Assembly (NCBI GenBank): GCA_958295855.1 | Contig: OY282383.1 | Location: forward strand, 183,178-247,177 | Source: an uncultured Poribacteria bacterium | Lineage (GTDB): Bacteria > Poribacteria > WGA-4E > WGA-3G | DNA: 64,000 bases | Reading direction: 5' to 3' | Shown here: piece by piece, positions 3,564 to 59,108 of the stretch | How the letters are laid out: each line of letters starts with the position of its first letter | Numbering within the stretch: the first letter of the stretch is position 1 | Made by a program: the position numbers and the translations under genes | The notes under the pieces: model-generated | What the model saw: the letters and a program-made list of their open reading frames with translations, nothing else | Told to the model about the DNA's origin: nothing | The model's database searches: none

Positions 3564-3604
3564 TCCGCGTAATCCGCGTAATCCGCGTAATCCGCGATTC
3601 AGAC
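3564..3604. repeat. CCGCGTAATCCGCG (x3) ATTCAGAC repeat, same family as the Rpn-flanking repeats
   Basis: Direct sequence match to positions 30-76 and 1396-1530. Confidence 0.8.
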
Positions 3605-27176: not shown

Positions 27177-27790
27177 GATAGCAAGCTTTTCGTCATTCCT
27201 TGCGGAGTAATCAGGTTGCAAGACGCATCGCGCAATGCACTGTAGATCTCGTCGGAGGTTTCTGATGCCTTAATTGTTTGTAGGGGCAGTGCCTTGTGCC
27301 TGCCCTTCCCCTCCGAATCGCAACACTTTTACAAAAAAGTTGAATATTCCGCTGACATGTGGTAAAATTCGTATTTTCGTCATTCCTTGCGGAGAATTCA
27401 GGTCGCAAGACGCATCTGGCAATGCACTGTAGATCTCGTCGGAGGTTTCTGATGCCTTAATTGTTTGTAGGGGCAGTGCCTTGTGCCTGCCCTTCCCCTC
27501 CGAATCGCAACACTCTTACAAAAAAGTCGAATATTCCGCTGACATGTGGTAAAATTCGCCTTTTCGTCATTCCTTGCGGAGTAATCAGGTTGCAAGACGC
27601 ATCTGGCGCTGCACTGTAGCTCTCGTCGGAGGTTTCTGATGCCTTAATTGTTTGTAGGGGCAGTGCCTTGTGCCTGCCCTTCCCCTCCGAATCGCAACAC
27701 TTTTACAAAAAAGTTGAATATTCCGCTGACATGTGGTAAAATTTGCGGCGTAATGGCATTAACCCCCTGCAAAGCAGGGGCAAATACCCT
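27177..27790 (+). repeat. Three tandem copies of a composite unit of about 184 bp, then a palindromic element
   Basis: Tandem periodicity starting at about 27177, 27361 and 27545. Module order: TTTTCGTCATTCCTTGCGGAGTAATCAG; CTGTAGATCTCGTCGGAGGTTTC; GGGCAGTGCCTTGTGCCTGCCC; promoter-like TTGAATATTCCGCTGACATGTGGTAAAAT. Confidence 0.9.
27714..27742 (+). promoter_or_regulatory. Promoter-like element TTGAAT, 17-bp spacer, TGgTAAAAT (extended -10); promoter-proximal copy of three
   Basis: Identical elements at about 27346-27374 and 27530-27558. Oriented toward fumC. Confidence 0.5.
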
Positions 27791-29217: not shown

Positions 29218-29396
29218 TTGGTTGCAGGCTGTCGACATACTGCCCATCAGCCCCCCGCACCCCGACACAGGCAACAATGAAAAATTTTTTGTCGTGCCGG
29301 GGGACATGACGAAGCCGAATCTATAATTGGTTGCAGGCTGTCGACATACTGCCCATCAGCCCCCCGCACCCCGACACAGGCAACAATGAAAAATTT
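29181..29396 (+). repeat. Tandem duplication of about 108 bp spanning the fumC stop codon
   Basis: The segment 29181-29289 is repeated almost exactly at 29290-29396. The first copy includes the last 12 codons of fumC. Confidence 0.85.
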
Positions 29397-29399
29397 ACT

Positions 29400-29752
29400 G
29401 ATTTTTCATTTAGGGTAATGCCCCGCAAAGCGGGGAATCACCCTGTCACCTGTGTTGCGACGTGCATTCAGATGTAACCTTAGCCCCAGCGGGGCGACAT
29501 GTGTATAGCCGCGCATGCCGACCCTCCTCCTTAGCCCCAGCGGGGCGACAGGTGCTAAGGGTGCATAAGAAACCTCCGACGACATCTACTGTAGCGGCAG
29601 TGCCTTGTGCCTGCCCATCTACATCGTCAGAACACTCCTGCCAATGGTATTTGCCCCTGCTTTGCAGGGGTTTCATACCAAGTTGTGAATGGCCAATGAA
29701 CAACTTTTTTATTTCTTACTTATGCTGATTACTCCGCAAGGAAAGACAAAAA
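29400..29752. repeat. Mosaic of intergenic repeat modules (palindromic element, GCCCCAGCGGGGC hairpin x2, GGCAGTGCCTTGTGCCTGCC, CTCCGCAAGGAAAGACAAAAA)
   Basis: Module families recur across the window. Confidence 0.8.
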
Positions 29753-32700: not shown

Positions 32701-35700
32701 TCAACAACTCACCTGGGAGCAATGGGCACTCAGGGTGGTTAACCTGGGTGACCTTGTAAGCAGGTGCATCAAGCTTTGCGCTAGAGGGATGAACCCCCTG
32801 CTTTGCAGCGGCAGACTGACCGATTGTGTTCATCATATCTACTTTGTTGTCGGTTTCCCATGCAGAAGATGGACTGTCGGAGCCGATGGCTATCCAGAGA
32901 TTTCCTTCTTGGCGCACTGTGCTGCCGGGGCGGAAATCGCGGAACCGCACGGTTCCCTTAACTTTCGCAAGAACTTTGCGCTGGCGCGCTTCTGAAATGG
33001 CCTCAACAGCCCCACCGGTGTGGAACGTCCGCATCGTTAGCTGCGTGCCGGGTTCACCAATGGATTGTGCAGCGATGATACCGATGGCTTCGCCGACATT
33101 GACAAGATTGTTGGTCGTCAAATCAATGCCGTAGCACTTTGAACAGACACCTTCGTCGGCTTGACAGGTGAGTACGGAACGCACTTTTACGACTTTGATG
33201 CGCGCGGCCTCAATCTGTGTGGCTTCTTCCTCGGATATCAATTGCTCGCTGGCTTTAAGCACTTGGCCTGTATCTGGGTGGATGATGTCTTCGGCGGCGG
33301 TTCGCCCTCTGATTTTAAATGCAAGGCTGCCGCCTTCAGTTGTAAACTTCTGAATGCTGTTCAGTGTCTTGCAATCTTCAGTGGTAACGCGGACATCTTG
33401 GGCAACATCTACTAACTTCCGGGTTAGATACCCGGATGCGGCGGTTTTCATTGCGGTATCTACTAAGCCTTTGCGCGAGCCGTAGGTGGAGTTGAAATAG
33501 TCTAACACATCTAAGCCTTCGCGATAGGAGGCGGTTATCGGTGTAGAGAGAATGTTGTTGCTCTGATCGGATTTCAAGCCGACAATTGCACTAATTTGCA
33601 TAAATGGGTTCTTCCGCGCGCGCGCTCCACTATCCGCCATAATATGCACTGGACTGAAACCTTTGACGGTTTCAGCGCCTATCTCTACGCCATCAGCATC
33701 TACGTTTGGATGAATCTTACGCGAGTCGCCGCGTTCAACGAGTGATGTCTCTAATTCGGGTAAGGCGGAGAACATCCTTTTCTCAACCTGTTCAATCGCT
33801 TCGAGCCAGATGCGAATTCGCTCATTCTCTAACTCGCCTGTGTCTGTAGCAGAGGTTGTCGCAAGGAGGTTATCCACTTCGGACTGGGCTTTGCTCACTA
33901 AAGCATCCCGGTTGTCGGGCCTGAGGTAATCTGTTATGCAGGGCGATATGCCGCTCAGGGTTGCATAGTGGAAGGCAAGTTTTTGGATTTCCTCAAGCAT
34001 GTTGACTGTAACACGCGTTCCTAATTCGTTGAAACAGTCGTAGACTATCTTGGATAACTCGCGTCCGCTGGCTTCGGCGTTGAAAAAAGGCACCTGCTGC
34101 CGGGAATGCTCGTCTATCCACGCATCCTCGGACGAACTTCCTTTGATTTTCTTGAGTTTATCTGGCAGTACTTCGTTGAAAATAACTCTGCCTACTGTCG
34201 TGAGTATGGGGCTGGCTGTGGCACGCGGCCTGCTACTTTCGTGCTTGCTACTTTCCCCAAAAAAGAGTTGGAGGCTATCGTGTAGTTTGAGTTGGCCGGC
34301 TGCGTGCGCGGCGATAACTTCTTCTGTATTTGAATAGCGACGGTGGTACCAAGGTTTTTGGCGGAGCTCATCCAGTCGCGATTCGGAGATGGCTCCTACC
34401 GATTGCGCGATAAACTCATGCAACAACTTTGCATCCTCAGCATGTCCCGGCAGTTCCTTCGTCAGGAAACTCGGCCCTAGCACCATGTCAAGCTCCGGTA
34501 CTGCAATTGGACCGCCGTGGGATGGCTTGAGGATATTATGACTGCTGAGCATTAGCAGCTTTGCCTCTGCCTGTGCCTCTACTGTGAGTGGCACATGCAC
34601 TGCCATCTGGTCGCCGTCAAAATCGGCGTTGAATGCCTTACACACAAGGGGAGGTATCCGTATCGATTTGCCTTCTACTAACACTGGCAGAAATGCCTGA
34701 ATGCCAAGCCGATGCAACGTGGGTGGGCGATTCAGTAACACGGGATGGTCGGCTATGACTTCCTCTAAGACTTCCCAGACAGGTGAATTGGACTCCACAT
34801 GCTCGGCGATGTGCTTCGCACGTTTTATCGTCTGCGTATAGTTATACGCTTGCAGCCTCTCGATAATAAATGGCTTGAACAATTCTACGGCCATTCGCTT
34901 GGGCAAACCGCATTGGTGGAGTCCCAGTTCGGGGCCGACGACGATGACGCTTCGCCCAGAGTAATCGACGCGTTTTCCGAGCAGATTCTGACGGAAGCGC
35001 CCGACTTTGCCTTTGAGGATATCGGAGAGTGACTTGAGCGGTCGGTTGCCAGGGCCGGCAACACGCCTGCCGTGCCGCCCGTTGTCAAAGAAGGCATCAA
35101 CGGCTTCTTGTAACATCCGTTTTTCGTTGCGCAAAATGACTTCGGGGGAACGGAGCTGTATTAACTTACGCAGCCGGTTGTTACGATTGATGACGCGGCG
35201 ATACAGATCGTTCAAGTCGCTTGTGGCAAAACGCCCGCCTTCGAGGGAAACAAGGGGCCGTAAGTCCGGGGGAATGACGGGTATCACATCCATAATCATC
35301 CACTCGGGGCGCTGTTCAGATGCGGCAAAGTCAGACAACTGTTTGAGCTGTTTGGATATCTTGAGCTTTTTCTGATGGCTTGTTGTTTCCGAAAGCAGTT
35401 CGGTGAGTTTCTCTTTCTCTGCCTGCAGGTCGATGCTGTTCAGAATCTCAGAAATGACTTCGGCGCCAGTCCCTGCGCGAAATTGACCGGGGTACTGGTG
35501 TTTCGCTTGCTCGTATTCTAATTCTGTTAGGACCTGACGCGGCTGCAGCGGACAGTCCGGGTCGCTGACGGATACAACAACAAAGGCTTCAAAATAGATG
35601 ATGCGTTCTACTTGGCGTGAGGAGAGATTACAAAAGGTGCCGATTCGTGACGGTATGCCTTTGAAGAACCAGATGTGGGAAACTGGGGCGGCGAGCTGGA

Positions 35701-36058: not shown

Positions 36059-36462
36059 ATTTTCGCTATTCCTTGCGGTGTAATCAGGTTGTAAGGTTCA
36101 TCGAGGGTTACACTGTAGATCTCGCTGGAGGTTTTCGCTATTCCTTGCGGAGTAATCAGGTTTTCGCTATTCCTTGCGGTGTAATCAGGTTGTAAGGTTC
36201 ATCGAGGGTTACACTGTAGATCTCGCTGGAGGTTTTCGCTAAAAGGGTTCGAAGGTGCCAAGAATTTTGACACCTTGTTCCTGTCTGTAATTTGCGGAGA
36301 ATTCAGCATGGGCAGGCACAAGGCACTGCCCCTACAGATACAAGCCTTGCATCAAAAACCTCCGACGAGATCTCTAATGCGATGACAACTACATAATGCC
36401 AATGGTATTTGCCCCTGCTTTGCAGGGGTTTTATACCAATTCGAGTTCTCCGCAAGGAATGA
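36059..36462. repeat. rpoB-rpoC intergenic mosaic: two copies of TTTTCGCTATTCCTTGCGGTGTAATCAGGTTGTAAGGTTCATCGAGGGTTACACTGTAGATCTCGCTGGAGG, plus GGGCAGGCACAAGGCACTGCCCCTACAG and a palindromic element
   Basis: Direct reading of the sequence. Provides the rpoC SD and the rpoB stop codon. Confidence 0.85.
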
Positions 36463-39400
36463 CTAAAGGTCTGAGTCGCGATTGAGTGTCACGTTCAGAC
36501 CAAGGCTCTGGAGTTCTCGCACGAGCACGTTAAACGATTCGGGCGTGCCGGGCGGGTTTGGGTTCAGCCCCTTAACTATGGATTCATAGATTTCCGATCT
36601 GCCTGCCACGTCGTCCGATTTGAGGGTGAGCATCTCCTGGAGCGTATGCGCAGCGCCATAGGCTTCAAGTGCCCACACTTCCATTTCACCGAGTCGCTGG
36701 CCGCCATGTTGCGCCTTACCGCCCAGAGGTTGCTGGGTGACAAGCGAGTAAGGGCCTGTGGAGCGCGCATGCATCTTGTCTGCTACAAGATGGTTCAGTT
36801 TAAGGAAATAGACGTAGCCGACTGTGACTTCTTGGGCAAAGGGTTCACCTGTCCTGCCATCATAAAGTACGCTTTTCCCTGTCTTTTTACTGCGTTCGGG
36901 GAGGTTCGTTTTTCCGAGCAGTTCAAAGATTTCAGTCTCTGTTGCTCCGTCAAATACGGGGGATTCTGCGCGTATGCCTAATGCGTGGCACGCCCATCCG
37001 AGGTGAATTTCTAAGATTTGCGCGACATTCATTCGTGATGGGACGCCTAAGGGGTTCAGCACGATTTCAACGGGTGTGCCATCTGGCATATAGGGCATAT
37101 CTTCAGCTGGCAGGATTTTTGCCACAACGCCTTTATTGCCATAACGGCCTGCCATTTTATCGCCAACGGAAATGGGACGTTTACTCGCGATATAAACTTT
37201 GACGCGTTTGATAACACCGGGTTTGAGTTCATCTCCCATCTCCAATTGCTTGAGGGCGCGTTCTTTCTCCTCTGTGTAGGCGGCTATCCTGCCTTGCGCC
37301 ATCTCCTCAACGCGGCGAATGTGTTCCATTGCGGCAGCATCCGTTACGCAAACGGATGATAACGCTATGCCAGGTGTGTCTAATAGCTCAGCTGTCACTG
37401 TGTCACCCGCAGCAAACGACGTTGGGGCAGCACTTTGTTCGGAATTCCCGCCCTGCCCCTTTGCCTCTTCACTGCTTTGCTTCCCGCCCGGTTTCCCATC
37501 ATGGGCAACCAGGAGGATAGCCTCCGCGTTGGTATGTTCCCCACTTTGCTTCCCGCCCTGCCCCTTTGCCTCTTCACCCTTTTCCCCATCGTGCCTAACC
37601 TGTGCCACTACAGGCAATGCAAGTTCACAACCAAGGAGCATGTTGCGTATTTCTTCGTCCTTCCGGTGGCGTATGGATGCGATGTGCGTCCTCCACGTCT
37701 CCTCGCTCTGCTTACGTTTGGATTCATAGCGCAATTCTTCAATTCTTGATGCGCCTGTTTCCGAACGTGTCCAGCCGCCGCGGCGTTGCAATCCATCTGG
37801 CTTTCGGGAAAACACTTTGACATCAATTACTATGCCTTCAACGCCGGGGCGGATGTAGGTGGAGGCATCGCGGACATCTCGTGCTTTTTCGCCGAAGATG
37901 GCGTGCAGCAGTTTTTCTTCGGGGCCATACTCACTTTCGCCTTTGGGCGTAATTTTTCCCACGAGGATACTGCCGGCACTGACAACACTGCCAACGCGGA
38001 TGATGCCTTCCTCATCAAGCTGCAAAAGGCGTTGCTCGCTCATGTTCGGAATGTCGCGCGTTATCTCCTCTGGGCCCACCTTCGTTTCGCGTGCCTCTAC
38101 TTCGACTTCTTCAATATGAATAGAGGTAAAGGTGTCCTTGCGGATGAGGGTTTCACTAATGAGGATAGAGTCCTCATAGTTGTGCCCGCCCCAGGGCATA
38201 TAGGCGCACAAGATATTTCTGCCGAGGGCGAGTTCACCTCCGTCGGTGGATGTGCCGTCGGCAATAACATCGCCTGCTTGCACTTTATCGCCTACAGAAA
38301 CGATTGGATGCTGGTGGATACAGGTGCCACTGTTACTGCGCTTGAAAGTCTGGAGTTTGTACTGGTCGTATCCCATTTCGCTAAATCCATGCTCGCCGGT
38401 GTCGGTATGCAGCACTTCGCCGGTGTGTATGAGGATTTCGTCAGCGGAGATACTTGCGACGGTGCCGCTGCGGATGGCGGTTCGGAGGGCTCCGGAGTCC
38501 AGTGCGGCGCGGGTTTCCATGCCTGTAGCTACAAGAGGGGCTTCCGGACGGATGAGGGGGACGGCTTGGCGTTGGTGGTTGGCTCCCATCAATGCGCGGT
38601 TCGCGTCTTCGTGCTCGAGGAACGGAACAAGGGAGGCAGAAACGCCAACTATCTGTTGCGGCGCGATGCCAACATAGTCAATTTCAGTGGATTTCGTTTC
38701 TTTGAATTCTATGACGTCGCCCTCTTTGGCATCGTTCCAGCGTCGCATGGCACGGACAGAATAGCCATGGCGGTTTTTCTTTCCTGCTTTATGGAAAGCA
38801 TCTGCGGATGCAATGGTACAGCCCAGCTCTGCATCTGCAGTCAAATACTCAATCCGGTCAGTGAGCTTACCCTCAACAATGACTTGATAGGGCGTTTCCA
38901 AGAACCCGTAGCGATTGACGCGTGCGAATGTAGCGAGCGATACAATCAGCCCGATTGAGGGCCCTTCTGGGGTTTCAAGCGGACATACACGCCCGAAATG
39001 CGTTTCGTGAACGTCGCGGACAGCTGCGGTTGCCCTGTCGCGATGTAGTCCGCCGGGCCCGATTGCGGAGATGCGGCGTTTGTGCGTCAACTCATCCAGG
39101 GGATTGATTTGTTGCATAAACTGCGAGAGTTGGTTAGAGCCAAAAAACTCACGGAGTGCCATCATGAGTGGTTTGGGGTTCACCAATGCGCCGGGTGTTG
39201 CTTTGGCGCGGTCCTTGAGGATATCGACAGCACTGAGGCGTTCGCGTGTCGTTCTACGGATTTGGAATAATCCCATTCTGAATTGGTTTTCTAGCAGTTC
39301 CCCGATAACTCTGACGCGCCGATTTTCGAGATTGTCCTGGTCGTCCTTGGGTACAAGTTTGTTCTGCACCTGTATGAGGTATGCCAGTGTTGCGGTGATA

Positions 39401-41039: not shown

Positions 41040-41739
41040 ACTCTGGTGGTGGGCAGGCACAAGGCACTGCCCGTACGGCGCAATGAAATCCCGAGAATAA
41101 AAAAGTTGTTTGCTTTTCGCGCACAACTTGGCTTGCAAGCTTCGCCAAAAAGTGGTGGGCAGGCACAAGGCACTGCCCCTACGGACGCGCCGCCTTTTAA
41201 CCTATTGGCAATAGCATAACAGAATATTATACACTATAATTAGGGGAAAGTCAAGAAAAAATGCATTTTTGTTATTCCTTGCGGAGTAATCAGCATAAGT
41301 AAGAAATAAAAAAGTTGTTCATAAAAATTCACAACTTGGTATGAAACCCCTGCAAAGCAGGGGCAAATACCATTGGCAAGACACATCCAGCAATGCACTG
41401 TAGCTCTCGTTGGAGGTTTCTTATGCAACCTTTCGGGCCAATGGCTGCCCGCCCACCCGTTTCCGTATTGTGGCTAAAAAAGGGGGTGCTTGTTTTTGAC
41501 GTTAATCAAGCTAGGGCATTTAGTTTTCAGTAGTTTTGAGTAAGGGGCGTGGTTGGGTGAGGATTAAGAATTTTCGTCTATGCCTAGTATTTTGATTGGA
41601 TTATGTGGTGTTAATGGCATTGGAGCTCTCGTCGGAGGTTTTGGTCTATGTCTAGTATAATGTGGTATAAAGGTTGACACACCACGTTAACTTGGTATAC
41701 TGTATTAAGGTACGGAAACCCCGTGCTACGGGAGACAAA
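41040..41739. repeat. Repeat-dense intergenic region (GGGCAGGCACAAGGCACTGCCC x2, palindromic element, CCCGCCCACCCGTTTCCG, GGGCATTTAGTTTTCAG, and others)
   Basis: Module families shared with other intergenic regions. Confidence 0.8.
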
Positions 41740-42270
41740 ATGGGAACAATTACAGTACCAGCACCTGTCAAAGCTATCATCGGTGTGTTGACAGGGGACG
41801 CGCTTCTTCTGCCAACTGTCTATCAGGAATTGACAGCTCAGCTCGGGCACATTGACTTCACGAGTGAACTTTTGCCTTTCACCAGCACAACCTATTATGA
41901 AGCTGAGATGGGACGAGGGCTCCAACGGCAGTTTATTAGCTTTGAAAGGCTCATCGATGCAGGGACATTGGCAGAGATGAAACTGTTTACAAATCAGGTG
42001 GAGCAGGCGTTTGCAGAAGAGAAAACCTCGCGACGGCGCGTCAATTTAGATGCAGGTTATGTGTGCTCAGCGAAGTTGGTACTCGCCTCAACGAAAGATC
42101 ACGCGCACCGTATCTACCTCCGCGCCGGTATCTATGCGGAAATGACGCTCCGATTCTATCGCAAAACCTTCCAACCGTGGGAATGGAGTTATCCTGACTA
42201 CCGTTCCCCGGACTACATCGCTATTTTTAATCACATTCGCACAATCTATAGGGAGCAACTCAACGCATGA
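41740..42270 (+). CDS. Hypothetical protein (possibly DUF4416-like)
   Basis: ORF 41674..42270. Start moved to MGTITVPAP (AAAATG). The stop overlaps the next gene's ATG (ATGA). Confidence 0.35.
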   Translation: MGTITVPAPVKAIIGVLTGDALLLPTVYQELTAQLGHIDFTSELLPFTSTTYYEAEMGRGLQRQFISFERLIDAGTLAEMKLFTNQVEQAFAEEKTSRRRVNLDAGYVCSAKLVLASTKDHAHRIYLRAGIYAEMTLRFYRKTFQPWEWSYPDYRSPDYIAIFNHIRTIYREQLNA

Positions 42271-43574
42271 ACAGATATTATGAGAGAAACCTCACCGCTA
42301 GTCCCAGTGACTCGGCTGGAAGACAAGAAGGGTGGAAGAAGGGAAAAAACACCGCCCCCCAACCTTACTGTCTTCCATACTGTCTGCCATTTTTCCAATC
42401 TTCAAAAATACTAGTCTGTTGCATCATTTGTGCTTTTTGGTTAGTGGTATTTACCCCTGCTTTGCAGGGGCAGATACCCGGTCAAGGTTTTGCCGGGGCG
42501 CAATCGACTGAGTCACCCCGAGCGCGGGCGCGCGAGCTCGGCATCTATATCGGGAGCCTTCCTACCGGTGAGTACAACGCAATCACCGACGTGCCCGGGG
42601 TCAAAGTAGGACACGTCACCCTGAAGCAGGGGGAGTCAATTCGCACTGGTGTCACCGCTATCCTTCCGCGCGATGATATTTGGGAAGCGCGTCTGTTTGG
42701 CGCAGCACATACCATTCATGGCAACGGTGAAGCCACCGGCATCGCCCGAATTAATCAAGCCGGGTGGATTGAGTCCCCGATTTTGTTGACAAATACCCTG
42801 AGTGTCGGGGCTGTTCACGATGGTGTTGTCCGGTACATTGTCAAGCGGTATCCGGACAATAACATTGTGCTGCCGATTGTGGCAGAGTGTTACGATGGCG
42901 GCTTGAACGACATCAGCGGGCTCCATGTAACTGCACAGCATGCCATTGAATCCATTGAGAACGCCACCTCCGGTAAGGTAGCAGAGGGCAGTGTAGGCGG
43001 CGGTACAGGTATGCGATGCTACGGGTTCAAAGCCGGTATCGGTACTGCCTCGCGGGTACTCCCACCAAACAGGGGCGGATGGAAAGTCGGGGTACTCGTC
43101 AACGCAAACGGCGGACGACGACATCAGTTACGCATTGATGGCGTGCCGGTGGGTAAGGTACTTGATGATGCCCAGCAGAACCCAGGCAGGGACGGCTCGT
43201 TTATCATCGTTATCGCGACGAACGCGCCGTTAACGCATCGGCAGTTGAAACAGCTGGCGATGCGTGCAACGCACGGCCTCGCCCGCACAGGCACACCAAG
43301 CACAGATGGCAGTGGTGAGTTCGTTATCGCGTTTTCTACCGCCAATATTTTTCCACGCGGCACAGAAACAGGTACCTTTCACATCCAGATGGTAGTCAAC
43401 TCACGCTTGAATTCTCTCTTTCAAGCTGTCATTGAGGCAACAGAGGAGGCTATTGTGAATTCAATGACGATGGCAACCACAACCACTGGCCGCAACGGCA
43501 GAACAATGCACGCGATTCCATTGGATGGGTTGCAACAGGTGATGCAGCAGTTTTCGTCATTCCTTGCGGAGTAA
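42267..43574 (+). CDS. Peptidase family S58 / P1 (DmpA-like L-aminopeptidase / D-Ala esterase-amidase family)
   Basis: 435 aa with a DmpA/ArgJ-like fold signature. A palindromic element sits inside the N-terminal hydrophobic region. The C-terminal FSSFLAE* is encoded by a repeat module. Confidence 0.55.
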   Translation: MNRYYERNLTASPSDSAGRQEGWKKGKNTAPQPYCLPYCLPFFQSSKILVCCIICAFWLVVFTPALQGQIPGQGFAGAQSTESPRARARELGIYIGSLPTGEYNAITDVPGVKVGHVTLKQGESIRTGVTAILPRDDIWEARLFGAAHTIHGNGEATGIARINQAGWIESPILLTNTLSVGAVHDGVVRYIVKRYPDNNIVLPIVAECYDGGLNDISGLHVTAQHAIESIENATSGKVAEGSVGGGTGMRCYGFKAGIGTASRVLPPNRGGWKVGVLVNANGGRRHQLRIDGVPVGKVLDDAQQNPGRDGSFIIVIATNAPLTHRQLKQLAMRATHGLARTGTPSTDGSGEFVIAFSTANIFPRGTETGTFHIQMVVNSRLNSLFQAVIEATEEAIVNSMTMATTTTGRNGRTMHAIPLDGLQQVMQQFSSFLAE

Positions 43575-43826
43575 TCAGCATGGGTATGAAACCCCTGCTT
43601 TGCAGGGGCAAATACCATTGGCAGGATAGTTCTGACGGGCAGGCACAAGGCACTGCCCCTACAGTAGATCTCGTCGGAGGTTTCTGATGCAAGTTTTTTA
43701 ATGCTTAATTAGCAGGGAACACACTACAACTCATGTCGGAGGTTTCTGACGCAATGTTCGTAGGGGTGGTGCCTTGTGCCTACCCACATACTGGAGTATA
43801 TCGCGATTCGGACATCGCTCCTACGT
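43555..43826. repeat. Intergenic mosaic (TTTTCGTCATTCCTTGCGGAGTAATCAG, palindromic element, GGGCAGGCACAAGGCACTGCCCCTACAG x2, GATTCGGACATCGCTCCTACG)
   Basis: Module families shared across the window. Confidence 0.85.
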
Positions 43827-45953
43827 CTACCTCTGTCCGCCGGGGGCAAGTGCCGCCGGTACCACCTCATGATGTGAAAACTCAAGCGTGAACGCCCCGC
43901 GCCCCTGCGTCATTGAGCGGAGCTGGGTTGTATATTGGAACGTTTTTGCTAACGGGATAAAAGCACTGACAAAGTTGAACGCACCTTGCGTACCGCTTTC
44001 GTTAATCTGGGCGCGGCGTGCATTCAGGTCGCCGATAACCTTTCCGACGTGTTCATCTGGTGCCGTGATATGTATCCGCATAATCGGTTCAAGGAGCAGG
44101 GGTTTCGCCGTTCTGACCGCGTTTTCAAAGGCGAGCACAGCCGCCGCCTCAAAGGCGACTTCTGAGGAATCTGTTGAATGACAGGAACCACCGGTGAGCG
44201 TTACCTTGATGTCTTGCAGTGGGTATCCGATGAGCGCACCGCTTCCCATCGCACCTTTGAGCGCGTTCTGAATGGCAGGAATGTATTGCCGTGGAATCTG
44301 CGTCTCATCCGTCTCATCCGCAAACTGAAACCCGCCGTCTCGTTCCAATGGGGCAACAGTGAGTACCACATCGCCATAAATGCCTTCCTCATCTGTTTTA
44401 TGGATGTGTGTGCCTCGCGCTTCAGCAGGCGTGCTGATAGTCTCCCGATATGCCACCTGTAGTTTGCTCACGCGCGCGTTCACACCAAACTCGCGGCGCA
44501 TCCGGTCGGTGAGAATTTCTAGGTGGAGTTCGCCCATCCCAGAGATAATCCGTTGCCCCGTCTCTTTATCAATACCGACGGTGAACGTCGGGTCTTCGTC
44601 CATTAATTTTTGGAGTGTCTCCTCCAGTGTGTCTGCATCACTGGCGCGTTCAGGTTCAATTGCGATGGAGATAACGGGCTGTGGAAAAGTGATGGATTCT
44701 AACAGGATAGGATGCTTCGCATCTGCCAATGTATCGCCTGTTTTCGTATCCCGAAGCCCGACGAGGGCAACGATGTCTCCTGCGTAAGCGGCATCACAAA
44801 CCGCCTCTTTGTTGGCATGCATCTGTAGAATGCGGTTCACCCGCTCCCGTTTGCCGGAACCGACGTTATAGATGACTTCCCCACGTTTCAGGGTGCCTGA
44901 ATAGATACGGCAATAGACCAGTTTGTCCACAGTGGGGTGGCTTGCGACTTTAAAGGCTAACGCTGCAAACGGGGCAGTATCATCTGAGTAGCGGGTGGTA
45001 TTTGCCCCCGCTTTGCGGGGCAGATTCTTGGTGGCTTTATTGTGGCTGGAGGTTGTTCTCACAGAAGAGGTATTTGGCACTTCACCTTCAATTGGGGGTA
45101 GGTCGACAGGCGAAGGCAGAAAATCAATGATTGCATCAAGCAGGGGTTGAACGCCCCGATTTTTGAGGGAACTTCCGCATAATACAGGGACTAACGTTCC
45201 CTTCAAAGTAGCAGTACGAATGCCTGCCACTAACTCGGCGGAGGTTATCTCCTGGCCCTCCAAGTATTTTTCAAGCAACGCGTCCTCTTCAACAACGACG
45301 CTCTCAAAAAGGGTTTCTCGGGCGAGTGCCACTTCGGCGTGAAACTCATGTGGAATTTCGGATTCTTGATAGGTCTGCCCGAGGTTTGCCGCATCCCAAT
45401 GCATCGCCTTCTGTCTTACCAGGTCAACAACCCCTGCGAAATCGGTTCCCTCACCAATTGGCAATTGGAGGGGCACCGGATTGGTGCCGAGTCGCTCCTT
45501 CATCATCTCAAGCACGCGAACGAAATTGGCACCGACCCTATCCATCTTATTGACGAAGATGATGCGCGGTACATCGTAGCGTTCAGCTTGATGCCAGACA
45601 GTTTCTGACTGTGGCTCCACACCGCCAACAGCACAAAAAAGTGCAACAGCACCATCTAACACGCGCAAGGAACGTTCCACTTCTACTGTGAAATCGACAT
45701 GGCCGGGCGTATCAATCAGGTGAATCGCGTGTTCTCTCCAGAAACAGGTTGTTGCGGCGGCGGTAATCGTCACCCCGCGTTCTCGTTCTTGCGCCATCCA
45801 ATCCATTTCTGCAGTGCCGTCATCTACTGCACCAATCTTATGCTTTTTGCCAGTATAGAAGAGAATTCGTTCGGTTGTGGTTGTTTTGCCTGCATCGATG
45901 TGCGCTGTAATACCGATGTTGCGCACGTTTTCAATAGAATATTCGCGTGCCAT
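43827..45953 (-). CDS. fusA: Elongation factor G (fusA-type; could be a paralog, as no rpsL/rpsG precede it)
   Basis: 708 aa with canonical G-domain motifs: [21 protein letters not shown]. Carries an in-frame insertion from a palindromic element in the G' region. Confidence 0.9.
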
Positions 45954-47102: not shown

Positions 47103-47275
47103 TCTTCGGACTGGCGACTCCTGCCTTTAGGTAGAAGAGGAAAGTCCGCCTCCTGTTAAATTCCCTTTTCAGCATGTGGTATTTAACTCTGCAAAGCAGG
47201 AGCAGATACCCTGTGCCGTTTTTGGGGAGTATACTACAAAAACAACTATCCTTCAAGCCCTAAATTGTACAAACG

Positions 47276-47392
47276 GGTCACGGCACGCGGAGGGCTCCTA
47301 CGACTTTGGTCACGGCACGCGGAGCGTGCCTACTACTTTGTGCCTACTACTTTTGGTCACGGCACGCGGAGCGTGCCTACTACTGTTTCCAT
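47276..47392. repeat. Tandem hairpin modules (GGTCACGGCACGCGGAGCGTGCCTACTACT x3, one degenerate) overlapping the 3' end of the DUF1156 gene
   Basis: Same family as 3611-3642 and 14592-14702. Encodes VVGTLRVP plus the stop codon. Confidence 0.85.
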
Positions 47393-50164
47393 CTGCTGTG
47401 GGGCACCCATCGCGGCAGAGATATACGGCCACTCTGTCACGAGGTTGTTGTACGCCGCAGCACTCGACGCATCGCCACGCACCTCATAGTACGCATACAA
47501 GACGCGCGCCAAACGTTTCGCAGACTCCGAATCGCGCATCGCACGCGCAACACCAGCACAGCCCAAAATACCACCGCTGTGCTCTACGCCCGATAAATGC
47601 CACATCATCCGCAGACACCCCTCCCACGCTGTCATCTCTTTTCGATTTTCACGCTCAGCGTATTCTTCCGCTCGCAACAGCCGAACCTTGCCGCGTGACG
47701 CGATGAGCACTCTGTCGTGCAGCGCGGCGATGTCTACATCCTTCGCTTTTGAAAGCCCCTCTGCATCCCCGAAGTTGCCCGCCATGTAGCCGTGCTGCTG
47801 CAACCACGTCAAACAGAACTGACTCTCCGCATCCAGTTCGCCTGTCTCTTTTTCATGATAGGCGGTGATTTCGTTGTTGATGTGCATGAGTGCCTCGCGG
47901 ATTGGCACAATCTCACCGCTGATTCGCATCACTTTGCTATAGCGGGAGTAGACCTCCATGCCGGGGCCGATGGCGGCTTGTGCTAAATCGACCGGCCTGA
48001 TGTTTGTGATGCGGGTGAGTCTGTCAAGTGCGGGTGGCATCTCTTTTTTCAGTGCTTGTAGAAATTCGTTGCGGGTTATGGTGGGGGCATCCTCAGGGCG
48101 CGGCCGACACACTAACACAACAGAGGATGCCAGCGCGTTTTTAGTCGCCTTAAGAGCTGTTGGCCGCTCTGTCCGCATTGGCCAGGTGCCGGTTACCTGA
48201 AAACCAGCGTTGACGATTGCCGTGAGCATCGTCTCCCAGCCGGTGGAGGTTTTTCCATCCTGTTCCTCTTCCTGCTGTTTGTAGGCGTAGAAAATGGATG
48301 TGGGAAATACATCTGTGCAGTGTTGTCGCATTTGCAGCAATGCCTTGCCGAGCAATTCCTCAAAGTGTTGTGTAGGATCTTTAAATCGAGGACTCGCGGT
48401 TATCTCCTCATCCTTTGGAGTCATCATGCCGGCAAACAGTTCGGTATAGGTATCGCGCAGAAGGGGTCTCAGCCAGACATAGAAGAACTCGGACAAATCT
48501 GCATAGCCGATATTATCGTAGTAGGGCGGATCTGTAATAAAAACAGGCATATCCTGAGCATGCGGCGTAGTACATACATCCGCCTGATACGCTTCACCAG
48601 TGTTCGCTGAGGTAGGGAACCTCTCAACAACCCTTGCAATCCATGCTATCTGCGCCAGCCAGTTTTGCGTTGAAGTTGAGAACGGATTTGCTTCAGCAAA
48701 ATCCCACATCATTGAGATTTTTTGCATGCCGAAAACTGGCATAATACTATTCCCCCCGGTGTCCCATATAGCGAAACTGGAACCACTCTCAGCGGTCCGG
48801 TCAATGGCAAAGGCAAGGTAAGTACAAACAGTTGAGGCGTATTCGGATTCTCCTCCATCTTGCAGGATAAGATTACGGACTTCTCCCAGAAGGTCTTTGA
48901 AAGTAGTGAGAGCCGTTAACTGACGTTCTGTGAAAAGTTGATGCCACTCTGTAAACCCATAATTCTGTATAGCAAAACCTAACGCTCGATGCGGCAGTTT
49001 ACCCCTAGGTTTCCACGTAGGTTGAACAGACTGGGCAGTGTGGATATGCGTATTCGCGGGAGGCACGAATATTTTGGGTTTACCGTCTGCGACTATCGCT
49101 GTCATTACCGCTCCCATCTTTCCTGCTTTCGCTTGTTCTCGGACATAAGGCAACTTGACAGCACTCCCGCACGCAAAGCAGTAGGCACCTGTTCGGCTGA
49201 CTGTAGGCTTCGGCACGCCTTCATTATCGGTTTGCACGACCCATGAAATCGTGTTGGATTCCCGGTCAACAACCGGCTTTGTCCAATGCTCATTACCTTT
49301 CTTTCTTGAGAGTTGGAAGGTTTTCATCAGCGGCATCTGGAGTCCACACGCAGGATTGATACACGGCACTGTGCGCGCCCAGATCCATGCCACAACCGTG
49401 GCAGTTTGCCCTGTGGGCAATTCCACGGGTGGATAGAGATGTCCGATGCGTTTGTGTGCTGCCGCGCGCATCCACGCCCCGTAGTAACGGATGTCGGATG
49501 CCAAGCCTGCGGTGCCTTTCCATGGCACACGCGTTTTCCTTTTACCTGTGCCGGTGAACATTCCCATCGGATCGGCATCAGGATGGACCGGTTTCTGGTT
49601 GTGAAACGTCGGGGGTAATTCAATCATCGCCTTGTTGAGCAGGACAGGCAGCGGATTTAGATCGGAGGCGCGGGCACGTAATCCCAGGCGTTGTGCCTCA
49701 AGCGGGATGGAGCCGCCCCCACAAAACGGATCATAGATTGCGGGGCAGTGGTCGCGGAGGTATTGTAGCACTGCATCGGGATTGTTTTCAAACCGCTGGC
49801 GACAATCCGTTAGGTCTTCGGCGTTGTTGCGTGCGACAGAGATGGCGATTTCACGGCGTGCCTCTGCCAAGAGGTTTTCATCGGTGCTATTTTTCCAGAG
49901 CACGAGTCTCCGGAGGAGGTGATGGAGTCGGTTTCGTTCTGCGTTCTGCTCGGGTTCGGTTGGGAATTCGTCTATGCATTCGGAGGGGTCGTCCACCATG
50001 CTGGCGAAGATAACGGCGCGGCATGCAGCGAGGGGACGACGCGCCCACCACTTGTGCAGTGTTGAGGGGTGTCCATGCGTCAGCGAAGCGTCTTTTGCAG
50101 ACTCTTGGTTGATATCTTGGAGGGGTATATTGACCTCAATGAGTTTTTTGCGGTAAGTCGTCAT
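47357..50164 (-). CDS. DUF1156-domain DNA methyltransferase (putative N6-adenine / N4-cytosine, DPPY motif); orphan, with no DUF499/DUF3780 partners nearby
   Basis: 935 aa. N-terminal HKWWARRPLAA motif typical of DUF1156. FITDPPYYDNIGYADLSEFF catalytic motif. Confidence 0.6.
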   Translation of the reverse strand: MTTYRKKLIEVNIPLQDINQESAKDASLTHGHPSTLHKWWARRPLAACRAVIFASMVDDPSECIDEFPTEPEQNAERNRLHHLLRRLVLWKNSTDENLLAEARREIAISVARNNAEDLTDCRQRFENNPDAVLQYLRDHCPAIYDPFCGGGSIPLEAQRLGLRARASDLNPLPVLLNKAMIELPPTFHNQKPVHPDADPMGMFTGTGKRKTRVPWKGTAGLASDIRYYGAWMRAAAHKRIGHLYPPVELPTGQTATVVAWIWARTVPCINPACGLQMPLMKTFQLSRKKGNEHWTKPVVDRESNTISWVVQTDNEGVPKPTVSRTGAYCFACGSAVKLPYVREQAKAGKMGAVMTAIVADGKPKIFVPPANTHIHTAQSVQPTWKPRGKLPHRALGFAIQNYGFTEWHQLFTERQLTALTTFKDLLGEVRNLILQDGGESEYASTVCTYLAFAIDRTAESGSSFAIWDTGGNSIMPVFGMQKISMMWDFAEANPFSTSTQNWLAQIAWIARVVERFPTSANTGEAYQADVCTTPHAQDMPVFITDPPYYDNIGYADLSEFFYVWLRPLLRDTYTELFAGMMTPKDEEITASPRFKDPTQHFEELLGKALLQMRQHCTDVFPTSIFYAYKQQEEEQDGKTSTGWETMLTAIVNAGFQVTGTWPMRTERPTALKATKNALASSVVLVCRPRPEDAPTITRNEFLQALKKEMPPALDRLTRITNIRPVDLAQAAIGPGMEVYSRYSKVMRISGEIVPIREALMHINNEITAYHEKETGELDAESQFCLTWLQQHGYMAGNFGDAEGLSKAKDVDIAALHDRVLIASRGKVRLLRAEEYAERENRKEMTAWEGCLRMMWHLSGVEHSGGILGCAGVARAMRDSESAKRLARVLYAYYEVRGDASSAAAYNNLVTEWPYISAAMGAPQQMETVVGTLRVP

Positions 50165-50551
50165 AGTGCTTTCTGCGCGCCCCTGAAGCCGGGCGGAGAC
50201 AGGGCTCCGCCCTTACAATTCAAAGCCATTTGATATGCGCCTGCGCGGGCAGGGCGGACCGCATCAGATGCGCCTGGTTTGTGCTCCGCGCAGAGTAATC
50301 AGGAAGTTTAACCACTATTGAAAATAGTGGCAAACGTCAGGATAGTTCTGACGGGCAGGCACAAGGCACTGTTTCCCCTACAGAGTAGATGTCGTTAGAA
50401 GTTTCTTATGCAACCTTAATTAGCAGGGAGTACTCTAGAACTAATAAGAAACCCGATTTTGAACCGGGTATCCGCCCCTGCTTTGCAGGGGTAAATACCT
50501 CATGCGGAAAAATCGGAGCAGAAACCGAATTGATGAAAGACTGCTTGTTAA
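50165..50551. repeat. Intergenic mosaic (CCACTATTGAAAATAGTGG hairpin, GGGCAGGCACAAGGCACTG, CCTTAATTAGCAGGGAG, palindromic element, CATGCGGAAAAATCGGAGCAGAAACCG)
   Basis: Module families shared with 46000-46090 and 57360-57480. Confidence 0.8.
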
Positions 50552-56330: not shown

Positions 56331-57359
56331 ATGAAATCAAGAACCGATAGCCGCGCGCAAGCCGCACAAAAACCTCGATATGCAGCCATTATAGGGACAG
56401 GAGCTTACCTCCCTGAAAGGGTTGTCACCAATTTCGATCTCGAGAAAATGGTGGATACCAGCGACGAATGGATTCGTCAACGCACAGGCATTGCTGAACG
56501 GCGCATCGCGGATGACGATGTCGCCACCTCAGACCTCAGTGTCCATGCTGCCCGATGGGCTATTAAAAACGCGCAAATCGATCCGATTGACATTGACATG
56601 ATTCTCGTCGCGACTGTTACACCCGATACCTTTTTCCCATCAACGGCTTGCTATGTCCAGAAAGGCATCGGTGCAAAGAACGCATCTGCAATGGATATAT
56701 CAGCCGCATGCGCCGGCTTCCTTTATGGCCTTGATTTAGCGGATGGCTTGATTAAATCCGGACGGTACGATACTATCTTGGTTGTCGGGGGCGAAGTTTT
56801 TAACAATATTGTTGACTGGAAAGATAGGAATACATGTGTTCTCTTCGGAGATGGCGCAGGTGCTGCTGTTGTACAAGCCACCGAAGAACCAAAAGGGATT
56901 CTCGCTTCTTACATCGGTTCTGATGGGGATTATGCTGACATTAACCTACTCGGCATCCCTGCTGGCGGTTCCAGAATGCCACTGACAGCAGAAGGAATCG
57001 ACCAGAAACTGGACAAAATTCAGATGAATGGGCGGGAAGTCTTCAAGCTCGGTGTCCGGCTAATGCCTGAAGCCGCACAGCGGGTACTGCGCCAAGCAAA
57101 CGTCCATATTGACGACATTGATTTGTTAATACCCCATCAAGCGAATTTGCGCATCATCGAAGCCGTAGGCGACAGGCTTGGGGTGCCGCGTGAGAAGGTG
57201 TACGTTAACGTTGACAAATACGGCAATACCTCCGCAGCAACAGTGATCATCGCACTAGACGAAGCAATTCGCGAGGGACGCGCCACACCGGGAGACCTCA
57301 TTCTGCTCGTAACTTTCGGCGCAGGCCTGACATGGGGAAGCACACTCTTGCGTCTTTAA
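56331..57359 (+). CDS. fabH: 3-oxoacyl-ACP synthase III
   Basis: 342 aa. Active-site Cys context AACAGF. His/Asn region GNTSAAT. Confidence 0.9.
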   Translation: MKSRTDSRAQAAQKPRYAAIIGTGAYLPERVVTNFDLEKMVDTSDEWIRQRTGIAERRIADDDVATSDLSVHAARWAIKNAQIDPIDIDMILVATVTPDTFFPSTACYVQKGIGAKNASAMDISAACAGFLYGLDLADGLIKSGRYDTILVVGGEVFNNIVDWKDRNTCVLFGDGAGAAVVQATEEPKGILASYIGSDGDYADINLLGIPAGGSRMPLTAEGIDQKLDKIQMNGREVFKLGVRLMPEAAQRVLRQANVHIDDIDLLIPHQANLRIIEAVGDRLGVPREKVYVNVDKYGNTSAATVIIALDEAIREGRATPGDLILLVTFGAGLTWGSTLLRL

Positions 57360-57775
57360 CAATTCGGTTTCCGCTCCGATTTTTCCGCATGAGGTATTAA
57401 CCCCTGCAAAGCAGGGGCGGATACCCGGTTCAAAATCGGGTTTCCGGCAAGTTTGTAGCGTGTTCCCTGCTAATTAAGGTTGCATAAGAAACCTCGGACG
57501 AGAGCTACTGTAGCGGCAGTGCCTTGTGCCTGCCCATCTACATCGTCAGAACACTCCTGCAACCTGATTACTCCGCAAGGAATAACAAAAAGACGAGATC
57601 TGCCACAACGTCACAACAACGAATAATTAAGCGTTAAAATACTTGCATAAGAAACCTCCGACGAGAGCTACTGTAGCGGCAGTGCCTTGTGCCTGCCCAT
57701 CTACATCGTCAGAACACTCCTGCAACCTGATTACTCTGCAAGGAATGACAAAAAACTCTGCAAGGAATGACAAAA
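57360..57775. repeat. Intergenic mosaic between fabH and fabD, including two copies of GAAACCTC(C/G)GACGAGAGCTACTGTAGCGGCAGTGCCTTGTGCCTGCCCATCTACATCGTCAGAACACTCCTGCAACCTGATTACTC(C/T)GCAAGGAAT(A/G)ACAAAAA
   Basis: Duplicate unit of about 110 bp at 57478-57590 and 57645-57758. The last copy supplies the fabD SD (AAGGAATGACAAAAATG). Confidence 0.85.
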
Positions 57776-58756
57776 ATGCAACACGCCTTTATTTTTCCAG
57801 GACAAGGTTCGCAAAAAGTTGGCATGGGCGCTGAATTGGCACGAACCTATCCAATTGCCGAGGACGTTTTTGATGAGGCAGAGACAGTTTTAGGCAGACC
57901 ACTACGGCAGCTCTGTTTCCACGGCCCTGAGGCAGAACTAAAGCGGACAGAAAACACGCAACTTGCCATTTTGGCCTGTAGTGTTGCAACGTTGCGGGTG
58001 TTAGCACAATTAGGGGTTGTGCCGAAAGTAGTTGCAGGGCACAGTTTGGGAGAGTACTCCGCGCTCGTGGCGGCCGGTGTCCTTGAATTTGCCGATGCAT
58101 TGCAGTTAGTGTGCGCACGCGCACACTTCATGGCAGAAGCCGGTGCCAATGGTATAAACCCCTGTTTACAGGGGCAAATACCACCGCAGAACGGCACCAT
58201 GGCAGCAATCCTCGGCATGGAAACGGAACAACTCCAAAATCTTTGTGAGAAAGCTAATGGTGTTGTTAACATCGCCAATTACAACTGCCCCGGGCAATTG
58301 GTAATTTCCGGAGAAGTTGATGCTGTCAACCATGTTATTGCGCTCGCCAAGGGTGAAATCGGCGCAAGACGCTGTCGCACTTTGCCCGTAAGTGGCGCGT
58401 TTCACTCACCGTTGATGGCACCTGCACAACAAAAGTTCGGCGAGGCACTGAATGCAGTGACGTTGCATCCGCCTCAAGTCGCTATCGCGATGAACGTAAC
58501 AGGCGAGTTTGCCACAGATGCAGATAATATCCGAAGCCTCTTGTTTCAACAGATAACGCAACCCGTTCAGTGGGAGAAATCTCTGCACACTATGGCGAAG
58601 GCCGGCATCTCACATTTTGTGGAGGTTGGCCCGGGGAAAGTCTTGTGTGGCTTAGTGAACCGGACGCTCCGTGGCAGCAGTACCGCACATATTGAAGATA
58701 TCGACAGTCTTGAGGTTTTTCGTCATTCCTTGCGGAGTAATCAGGACGCAAGATAG
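57776..58756 (+). CDS. fabD: Malonyl-CoA:ACP transacylase
   Basis: ORF 57767..58756. Start set at MQHAFIFPGQGSQ. GHSLGEYSA active site. In-frame palindromic element at 58151-58182. The last 12 codons come from a repeat module. Confidence 0.9.
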   Translation: MQHAFIFPGQGSQKVGMGAELARTYPIAEDVFDEAETVLGRPLRQLCFHGPEAELKRTENTQLAILACSVATLRVLAQLGVVPKVVAGHSLGEYSALVAAGVLEFADALQLVCARAHFMAEAGANGINPCLQGQIPPQNGTMAAILGMETEQLQNLCEKANGVVNIANYNCPGQLVISGEVDAVNHVIALAKGEIGARRCRTLPVSGAFHSPLMAPAQQKFGEALNAVTLHPPQVAIAMNVTGEFATDADNIRSLLFQQITQPVQWEKSLHTMAKAGISHFVEVGPGKVLCGLVNRTLRGSSTAHIEDIDSLEVFRHSLRSNQDAR

Positions 58757-59075
58757 CTCCCACAATACACTGTAGATCTCGTCGGAGGTTTTCGTCATTC
58801 CTTGCGGAGTAATCAGCATGGGTATGAAACCCCTGCTTTGCAGGGGCAAATACCATTGGCAAGATAGTTCTCACAATACACTGTAGATCTCGTCGGAGGT
58901 TTTCGTCATTCCTTGCGGAGTAATCAGCATGGGTATGAAACCCCTGCTTTGCAGGGGCAAATACCATTGGCAAGATAGTTCTCACAATACACGGTAAATC
59001 TCGTCGGAGGTTTTCGTCATTCCTTGCATGAGAAATCTCCGACGAGATCTGCCACAACGTCACAACTACAACCTT
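58717..59075. repeat. Tandem composite repeats of about 113 bp (TTTTCGTCATTCCTTGCGGAGTAATCAGCATGGGTATGAAACCCCTGCTTTGCAGGGGCAAATACCATTGGCAAGATAGTTCTCACAATACACTGTAGATCTCGTCGGAGG), two full copies plus partials
   Basis: Unit starts at 58717, 58789, 58902 and 59015. Confidence 0.9.
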
Positions 59076-59108
59076 AGAACTAGGCAATGACAAAAGATTA
59101 GGAACGAC

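Follow-up and report, generated by a model that had tools for sequence, protein, structure and literature searches.

How does a gene come to end inside a repeat, and does such a repeat seek out gene ends? These questions are raised by a 64,000-nucleotide (64-kb) stretch of contig OY282383.1 from an uncultured Poribacteria bacterium, hereafter the window, in which the gene of an S58 (DmpA-family) peptidase finishes within a 28-nt repeat, module A (TTTTCGTCATTCCTTGCGGAGTAATCAG; 43551-43578, plus strand). The original prediction, made from the sequence alone, had taken this module for a gene-end cassette that inserts at gene 3' ends and carries stop codons and C-terminal tails with it. Comparison with related genomes shows that the 28-nt module is the 5'-terminal edge of a larger lineage-specific, non-coding, non-autonomous mosaic repeat, copies of which have replaced the native ends of three genes in the sense orientation and adjoin start codons in the antisense orientation.

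The S58 peptidase and FabD have their nearest named homologs in Candidatus Poribacteria metagenome-assembled genomes (MAGs) and in assemblies of the sponge Geodia barretti, and the genome is that of a Poribacteria-clade sponge symbiont. The relatives used for comparison are a sister genome (ENA ERZ19489113, loci L003 and L008; 88-99% nucleotide identity across aligned blocks), a Logan lineage (L004 and L005; ~85% nucleotide identity), a TARA lineage (L006, L007 and L011; ~84% nucleotide identity) and a JGI lineage (L009). All C-termini below are given up to the stop codon.

Stop codons and start regions drawn from the module

The window contains 14 copies of module A when up to three mismatches are allowed (dinucleotide-preserving shuffles predict 0.00) and 16 copies of its 16-nt core (GTCATTCCTTGCGGAG; expectation 0.67). 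Comparing the C-termini of the genes concerned with those of their orthologs had been proposed as a test of the original prediction, and this comparison, which was carried out here, shows that, of the four genes named, three (those of the S58 peptidase, FabD and RpoB) have had their native C-termini exchanged for module sequence or cut short by it.

The S58 open reading frame (ORF; 42267-43574; Peptidase_S58, Pfam E = 2.9e-113) closes with TTT TCG TCA TTC CTT GCG GAG TAA, that is FSSFLAE and stop, and these last seven codons and the TAA are, as predicted, the first 24 nt of the module. Of the limits originally given for the module, the end at 43578 is correct, and the start at 43548 included three native bases (CAG), the true start being 43551. 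At least 60 S58 orthologs end in ...QQ(Y/H)GR or similar, against ...QQFSSFLAE in the window, and the window and sister proteins both end in ...QQVMQQFSSFLAE. At the DNA level, CAGCAG is followed in relatives by TACGGACGTTAG and a 37-nt spacer, and in the window by TTTTCGTCATT... and 252 nt of repeats, so that three native codons, the stop and most of the spacer have been replaced.

The fabD ORF (end 58756) reads through the module at 58717 in a different frame, again as predicted, to give FRHSLRSNQDAR and a stop. Native FabD tails are DTLEKISVGADTDLPV or ...TDEYGE (...LEDTLEKISVGADTDLPV in the TARA relative, ...TDEYGE in more distant Poribacteria), and module-derived tails are found in the window (VFRHSLRSNQDAR), the sister genome (AFRHSLRRNQHK), the JGI lineage (VFRHSLR) and protein P0122 (VFLHSLR). 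All four switch to module residues at one nucleotide, between CTTGAGG and TYTTTCG. The occurrence of the same junction in three further lineages (L008, L009 and P0122) besides the window indicates that this insertion is old and that the length of the tail drifts.

The rpoB stop (36463-36465, minus strand) had likewise been placed correctly inside a variant of the module (CTTTAGTCATTCCTTGCGGAG). This mutated copy (CTTTAGTCATTCCTTGCGGAGAACTCGA; 36441..36468, minus strand), the first part of a composite A'-H-B at 36350-36468 that includes a hairpin, H, described below, begins CTTTAGTCATTCC..., truncates RpoB and holds its TAG, which was created by a TCG to TAG change within the copy. The TAA of the module has been lost here (GGAGAAC), and without the TAG the frame would continue for ~40 codons. 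RpoB ends in ...NRDSDSTADKMPPEPN in L004, ...DRDSDSAESKMPRESN in L006 and ...NRDSDL in the window, with a loss of ~11 native residues and a junction directly after GACTCAGA(C/T). At rpoC the original observation that the stop (29753-29755, minus strand) is immediately followed by a copy (29725-29752, 0 nt between) is accurate, and the C-terminus itself is native (...SDDDD in the window, ...DDD in the clade), the module only abutting the stop; the best match among the RpoC C-terminal homologs has 62% identity and the closest relatives are not among them, but the acidic ...DDD end is still conserved. The replaced residues lie outside the Pfam domains of the peptidase (104-413 of 435) and of FabD (8-303 of 329).

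The claim that the module carries stop codons in several frames did not survive. Of its sense frames, a single one contains a stop (TAA), and the two others are closed by the adjoining B segment at codons 13-26; closure of all three frames within an 80-nt stretch is ordinary for random sequence.

Module A also adjoins start codons, in the antisense orientation, at rpoC (36058) and at fabD (57776), which the original prediction had not mentioned. Read toward the downstream gene, the module ends in ...CCGCAAGGAATGAC(A/G)AAAA (also given as GCAAGGAATGAC(A/G)AAAA), which comprises an AAGGA resembling a Shine-Dalgarno sequence, A-rich spacing and even an ATG, and antisense copies put GCAAGGA-N9-11-ATG where the native ribosome-binding site stood. 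The rpoC leader is CGCAAGGAGCGAAGTAATA-ATG in relatives and CGCAAGGAATAGCGAAAAT-ATG in the window, with AAGGA in the same register; the first A of the array at 36060..36242, which reaches to 1 nt from the start codon, stands in place of the native ribosome-binding site. For sucD, the leader is GGCAAGGACTGAGAATTT-ATG in the TARA relative and ACAAGGAATGACAAAAAT-ATG in the sister genome. The native fabD start, ATG ACG CAA CTC, has been overwritten and the window reads GGA ATG ACA AAA ATG CAA CAC; the last A of the array at 57486..57776 overlaps the start, with AAGGA 9 nt before the ATG at 57776 and a further in-frame ATG at 57767. Since the native ATG is gone, translation must start at the new ATG 9 nt after AAGGA or at the in-frame ATG of the module. 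AAGGA thus lies 9-11 nt before an ATG at rpoC, fabD and, in the sister genome, sucD, as expected at the sequence level of a repeat-borne translation start, and we infer that the Shine-Dalgarno-like end would explain why insertions flush with start codons are tolerated.

These leaders bring up the possibility that the element is a selected cis-regulatory adaptor, which in antisense would provide a portable 5' untranslated region and ribosome-binding site and in sense a 3' mRNA element, after the manner of Neisseria REP2 or Correia elements or of REPs near stop codons, and whose spread would be adaptive. GCAAGGA 9-11 nt before ATG, in the register of native ribosome-binding sites, speaks for such an adaptor, as do the promoter-like sites of the 187-nt units described below and a B2 segment ending in GGAGG-N6-ATG; copies at the fabD stop and the proS start, moreover, persist across lineages ~15% apart. 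However, the FabD tail varies in length by lineage (FRHSLR, FRHSLRRNQHK, FRHSLRSNQDAR), as expected without constraint, the window and the sister genome do not have the same content at a shared site, many copies are internal to arrays and away from gene ends, no RNA structure signal is found, and close relatives manage without the module at the same genes. An adaptive origin is, in our assessment, unlikely, although it retains some weight.

The distribution of the copies bears on the remaining part of the original prediction. The 16 window copies lie in seven spacers of convergent, unidirectional and divergent types, with four at stops (sense), two at starts (antisense), eight inside tandem or clustered arrays and two at other array termini within divergent 5' regions, where a start is 70 or 252 nt away. 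Six of the eight array-terminal A ends are within 1 nt of, or overlap, a coding-sequence boundary, namely the stops of rpoC (0 nt), rpoB (-6 nt), the S58 gene (-24 nt) and fabD (-40 nt) in sense and the starts of rpoC (+1 nt) and fabD (-1 nt) in antisense. Under uniform placement in the present spacers, P is ~1.5e-5 for the six boundary ends and ~2e-6 for the three exact abutments. The sister genome has copies at both ends of fabD (start, -1; stop, -37), at the start of proS (+10) and, in truncated form, at that of sucD (+1), and its boundary copies are mostly antisense at starts (fabD, proS, sucD). Insertion at gene 3' ends holds for the four sense copies, but starts are abutted as tightly by antisense copies; the positional bias is real, and it is directed toward gene boundaries of both kinds, not toward 3' ends.

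A dedicated gene-end cassette, in the sense of a mobile element that targets 3' ends or stops and truncates or extends ORFs with stops of its own, would be in keeping with the four sense copies at or across stop codons, the three replaced C-termini and a boundary association far in excess of the uniform-placement null. Yet 12 of the 16 copies are away from stops, antisense copies at start codons account for two window copies and three of the four sister boundary sites, and copies are also found in divergent 5' regions (27187-27588, 41266). Only one frame of the module contains a stop, the rpoB stop required an extra mutation, and at the junctions native sequence has been replaced, which differs from a simple targeted insertion. 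A census of ~100 kb, comprising the 64-kb window and 36 kb of the sister genome and not the whole genome, already shows equal or greater numbers at starts and inside arrays. We hold such a cassette to be very improbable.

Architecture of the repeat and its turnover among relatives

Module A never occurs alone and is always the first 28 nt of an A-B unit of 72-82 nt in total, which consists of TTTTCGTCATTCCTTGCGGAGTAATCAG, ~24 variable nt (B1) and CACTGTAGATCTCGTCGGAGGTTT(CTGATGC) (B2). Hairpin H (GGTATGAAACCCCTGCTTTGCAGGGGCAAATACC), with or without a 45-nt block I, is nested at the A/B1 junction and hairpin P is nested inside B, so that H, I and P are inserted at constant internal points of the unit. 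The order A-(I)-(H)-B1-(P)-B2 is shared by the copies at 29565-29752, 41266-41426, 43551-43690, 57486-57776 and 58717-59032; recurrent, ordered hairpin repeats combined with conserved linker motifs are what characterizes bacterial interspersed mosaic elements (BIMEs). Tandem periods of 72, 111 and 187 nt, together with array-specific variants, point to local duplication.

Hairpin P consists of GTAG and GGGCAG, a 10-nt loop and CTGCCC, with at least seven perfect copies and a compensatory GGGTAG/CTACCC variant, and judged by its sequence it fits the published definition of a GTAG-tagged repetitive extragenic palindromic (REP) element (PMC3733652). A lenient scan for GTAG plus a hairpin returned 46 hits in comparison with 36-59 in shuffles, which is no excess, and among the GTAG hairpins only the perfect, repeated P-type and GGCACGC-type are meaningful. 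When A and A-B themselves were examined as REP palindromes (20-40 bp, with a stem of 6-13 bp and a loop), neither had this form. Folding of A-B gives z-scores of +0.5 (sense) and -0.3 (antisense), and two weak stems of 6-7 bp are predicted, with a compensatory change in one of 13 predicted pairs. As for possible tags, CTGTAG precedes a weak ATCTC/GAGGT stem with CGTC in its loop in B2, and A contains CGTC but no stem; the 3' end of B2 reads GGAGG-N6-ATG.

The individual loci illustrate how these parts are combined. Module A at 43551..43578 opens the composite A - H (43582-43620) - B1 - P (a GTAG REP in reverse, ~43637-43662) - B2 (43660-43690), which spans 43551..43690 on the plus strand and occupies much of the convergent S58/fusA spacer. 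A tandem array 3' of fabD (58717..59032, plus strand) comprises an A-B unit of 72 nt, two A-H-B units of 111 nt each and a truncated A; its first A and the start of B encode the FabD tail FRHSLRSNQDAR. Two A-B1-P-B2 composites and a truncated A lie antisense to fabH and fabD (57486..57776, minus strand), and an array A-B, A, A-B, in which all copies are of an array-specific CGCT variant, lies antisense to rpoC and rpoB (36060..36242, plus strand). The composite A - I - H - B1 - P - B2 at 29565..29752 (minus strand) starts 0 nt after the rpoC stop, and A - I - H - B at 41266..41426 (plus strand), which lies between the divergent rpoB and DUF4416 genes, adjoins no coding sequence, the rpoB start being ~250 nt away. 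Three tandem 187-nt units occupy a divergent region upstream of fumC (27187..27743, plus strand), each an A-B with a P hairpin (GTAGGGGCAGTGCCTTGTGCCTGCCC) and a promoter-like TTGAAT-N17-TAAAAT, and a degenerate, older-looking A-B-P copy is found between the DUF1156 gene and htrA (50285..50411, plus strand). In the 187-nt units the promoter-like sequence, TTGAAT-N17-(TG)TAAAAT, passes a promoter scan in two of three cases (27340-27368 and 27714-27742), and repeat-borne promoters, like those of Correia or REP2 elements, are a possibility.

The relatives differ in much of this. No module was found in the 20-kb syntenic block of L004-L007 (~84-85% identity), and the spacers of the relatives other than the sister genome are short in comparison with the window and the sister genome: 37 nt (L004, L006) against 252 and 294 nt for S58-fusA, 120-122 nt against 404 and 222 nt for rpoB-rpoC, 31-100 nt against 416 and 490 nt for fabH-fabD, and 77-141 nt against 352 and 259 nt for fabD-fabG. 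An nhmmer profile of A-B gives ~20 matches in the window and one to three diverged copies, with lineage-specific consensus changes, in L009 and L011. The sister genome lacks A at the rpoB stop and at the rpoC start, its S58-stop copy ends right after the TAA, it has an additional 80-nt H+I block exactly at an A/B junction, and upstream of a conserved promoter before an Uma2 gene its content is wholly different from that of the window. The copy before proS is present in both L008 and L011. On these comparisons the family is old in the clade, strongly expanded in the window lineage and still turning over.

Searches in larger collections added little. The exact module gave only two single chance matches in a genome contig collection (a Flavobacteriales MAG and a Saprospiraceae MAG), and the exact module and a degenerate pattern covering the window, L008 and L009 variants were unmatched in a metagenome contig collection that evidently lacks L009, itself a variant carrier. 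Viral contigs scanned for A and for B2 gave no match. A translated antisense array compared with 1.84 billion representative proteins, a search too insensitive for mapping the family, had three matches, two from the window's own contig and one unrelated.

An assembly or chimera artefact, or a CRISPR-like locus, might be suspected from a 28-nt repeat at regular intervals, which is superficially CRISPR-like. The same architecture recurs, however, in independent assemblies (ENA long-read L003/L008, JGI L009 and Logan L010) and the arrays are interleaved with intact essential genes, which leaves this explanation a practically negligible probability. Several further classes were considered and set aside. 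The segments between repeats are themselves repeated and no cas domains are present among the window proteins scanned, unlike a CRISPR array. A transposable element of the miniature inverted-repeat type (MITE) would call for terminal inverted repeats and a target-site duplication, and the unit has no such repeats and the S58, rpoB and fabD junctions no such duplication. For a structured RNA or Rfam family the fold is insignificant, covariation is almost absent and Rfam is unmatched: with Rfam 15 at the gathering score, the whole window has only a tRNA, and the fabD arrays give only chance-level miRNA matches. Intrinsic terminators are not represented, with no terminator-like site in 57340-59120 and no hairpin in A. 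A retro-element, suggested by the antisense 3' oligo-A run, has no evidence in its favour and no reverse transcriptase was seen, and the differences between copies are not adenine-specific, as they would be in an element like a diversity-generating retroelement.

Origin of the association with gene boundaries

The explanation that we favour, and consider probable, is that of a selfish or neutral mosaic repeat of the type of REPs, BIMEs and mycobacterial interspersed repetitive units (MIRUs), which filled short spacers and ate into gene termini, after which selection kept the compatible arrangements. The family has expanded strongly in the window lineage, and very short native spacers have been overwritten, with copies reaching slightly into the presumably dispensable ends of the flanking genes; only copies compatible with gene function would survive selection. 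A sense copy after a gene would add a few junk codons and a near stop (the TAA in frame 1, a TAG from B, or the mutated TAG at rpoB), and an antisense copy before a gene would stand in for the displaced ribosome-binding site. The link with gene boundaries would in this way be the outcome of two processes, insertion or recombination into tiny spacers and a selective filter acting afterwards, and not of a dedicated stop cassette. Shared GCAAGGA and A-runs may have provided microhomology for the formation of junctions. Mobilisation by a REP-associated tyrosine transposase (RAYT) and by plain recombination and slippage are both possible, the GTAG-REP content making RAYT a reasonable candidate for a mobilising enzyme.

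Several observations weigh against a selfish or neutral origin of this kind. The 5' end of the unit (TTTTCGTCATTCC...) and its reverse-complemented 3' end (GCATCAGAAACCTCCGACGAG) have no complementarity as terminal inverted repeats, no target-site duplication is present at the S58, rpoB and fabD junctions, where native sequence has been replaced, the loci compared include no clean filled and empty site for a whole A-B unit, and no relevant transposase family or Y1 transposase was found among the window proteins scanned. The census of ~100 kb is a small sample. The long-lived copies at the fabD stop and before proS could be functional and not neutral. The exact abutment of 0-1 nt is not explained by selection alone and hints at a junction preference, for which we would guess at A/T-run or GCAAGGA microhomology. 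In the rpoB-rpoC array (36060-36242), finally, CGCT stands in place of CGTC at two separate positions of the unit, one in A (TTTTCGCTATTCC) and one in the B2 loop (ATCTCGCTGGAGG); this concerted change hints that the A and B2 sites are copied from, or recognised like, each other.

The exact abutments of 0-1 nt and the concerted CGTC to CGCT change in A and B2 also keep alive the idea that A-B is an actively targeted gene-boundary mobile element, precise at starts and stops and acting as a two-faced adaptor. Such targeting could proceed by a single-strand mechanism of the Y1/RAYT type that uses CGTC/GTAG, or by pairing with ribosome-binding-site or A/T-run sequences. If this were the case, the element could colonise essential operons (rpoBC, fab) at no cost. 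We think it quite unlikely.

Neighbouring repeats, known systems and significance

Other repeats and insertions are found nearby. At the fusA 3' end (43827-43870, minus strand), another GTAG-tagged hairpin (GTAGGAGCGATGTCCGAATCGCG) stands 2 nt after the stop, and this hairpin family has been tandemised in the S58-fusA spacer of the sister genome. The gene of a DUF1156 (methylase-like) protein of 935 aa (47357-50164), between adh and htrA, is shared by the window and L003 but missing from L004 and L006; its flanks (47166-47384 and 50285-50500) contain clusters of GTAG-tagged hairpins (GTAGTAGGCACGCTCCGCGTGCC) and the degenerate A-B copy, and from its sequence context it looks like a lineage-specific insertion bordered by repeats. 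An ORF at 101-1243 belongs to the YhgA-like Transposase_31 family (PD-(D/E)XK / Rpn-type; Pfam E = 2e-27) and is bracketed by direct repeats of ~70 nt (21-75 and 1375-1440), containing 9-nt tandem units (TCCGCGTAA) and GTAG-tagged hairpins; the 9-nt repeat occurs again at 3555-3599. A 111-nt tandem duplication at 29184-29400 spans the last ~35 nt and the stop of fumC and sequence downstream, so that the 3' end of fumC is present twice. RpoC carries an in-frame, window-specific insertion of ~138 aa (32212-32616, minus strand) with a CxxC...HVHH...N...CxxCH pattern (HNH-like; Pfam HNH E = 0.067, below threshold), which is absent from L003, L004 and L006 and may be a nuclease domain or the remnant of a homing endonuclease in an essential gene.

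Hairpin H also occurs in frame within genes. In the N-terminus of the S58 peptidase (42444-42478) it encodes VFTPALQGQIPG, which L003 also carries and L004 and L006 lack; in rpoC (31835-31884 and 32785-32819) it encodes PQSGEHT in variable RpoC loops, again not found in relatives. These in-frame hairpins resemble Rickettsia palindromic elements (RPEs) and intragenic REPs. The antisense strand of the fabD-fabG array is open (58590-59063, minus strand) and is publicly annotated as a 157-aa protein, P0346, and a second array-derived ORF, P0347, comes from elsewhere in the same genome; both are spurious, repeat-derived hypothetical proteins.

Among known systems, REPs and BIMEs, GTAG- and CGTC-tagged REPs among them (Di Nocera et al., 2013, PMC3733652), are similar in that they are high-copy intergenic repeats arranged in mosaics and clusters a few bp from gene 3' ends; GTAG REP termini often provide a TAG stop, REPs occur <20 bp from 3' ends, and some REPs lie inside ORFs (PMC3733652). 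The nested P hairpin of the present family is itself a GTAG-tagged REP, but A and the A-B backbone are non-palindromic, A is without a clear tag and stem, and the stop comes from the internal TAA of a linker-like module and not from a GTAG tag. MIRUs are, according to the account of Supply et al. (1997) given in PMC3184786, direct repeats of 40-100 bp, in tandem in operon spacers, with ends that overlap the flanking genes. The 72- and 111-nt units in the fabH-fabD-fabG and rpoB-rpoC spacers are comparable, and the tandem units in fabD-fabG do overlap the fabD end. In contrast to MIRUs, the units occur in both orientations, contain nested hairpins and lack an ORF spanning from the upstream stop to the downstream start: no sense frame stays open beyond 26 codons, and the array reaches as far as the native ribosome-binding site of fabG, leaving 13 nt before its ATG. 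With Neisseria REP2 (and Correia) elements the family shares a repeat-supplied start region, seen here in the antisense module at rpoC, fabD, sucD and proS; there is no sequence similarity and no evidence of co-regulation, and the present element also terminates ORFs in the other orientation. The in-frame H hairpins tolerated inside protein genes are like RPEs and other intragenic repeats, whereas module A is found only at ORF termini and never inside. Cyanobacterial small dispersed repeats (SDRs) are reportedly repeats of 20-30 nt nested in larger ones, with lineage-specific expansions and a mobility that is unknown; A-B may be comparable in nesting and lineage expansion, the phylum and the sequences being different.

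In the literature searched, no description of such repeats in Poribacteria was found. Repeats that give stops, tails or ribosome-binding sites are already documented (REP, MIRU, Neisseria REP2, RPE), as are repeats by which genes are lengthened at the 3' or 5' end, and the present family opens no long-standing question, but the Poribacteria example is undescribed. For annotation it means that, in this clade, several conserved and even essential proteins (RpoB, FabD, the S58 peptidase) have ends of repeat origin, as have rpoC and fabD in their start regions, and that the arrays lead gene callers to predict ORFs that are spurious, the 157-aa P0346 being one. For genome biology, an uncultivated candidate phylum of sponge symbionts joins the bacteria with large, rapidly turning-over mosaic repeats, and provides a clear natural case of one repeat donating a stop in one orientation and, as its leader sequences suggest, a ribosome-binding site in the other.

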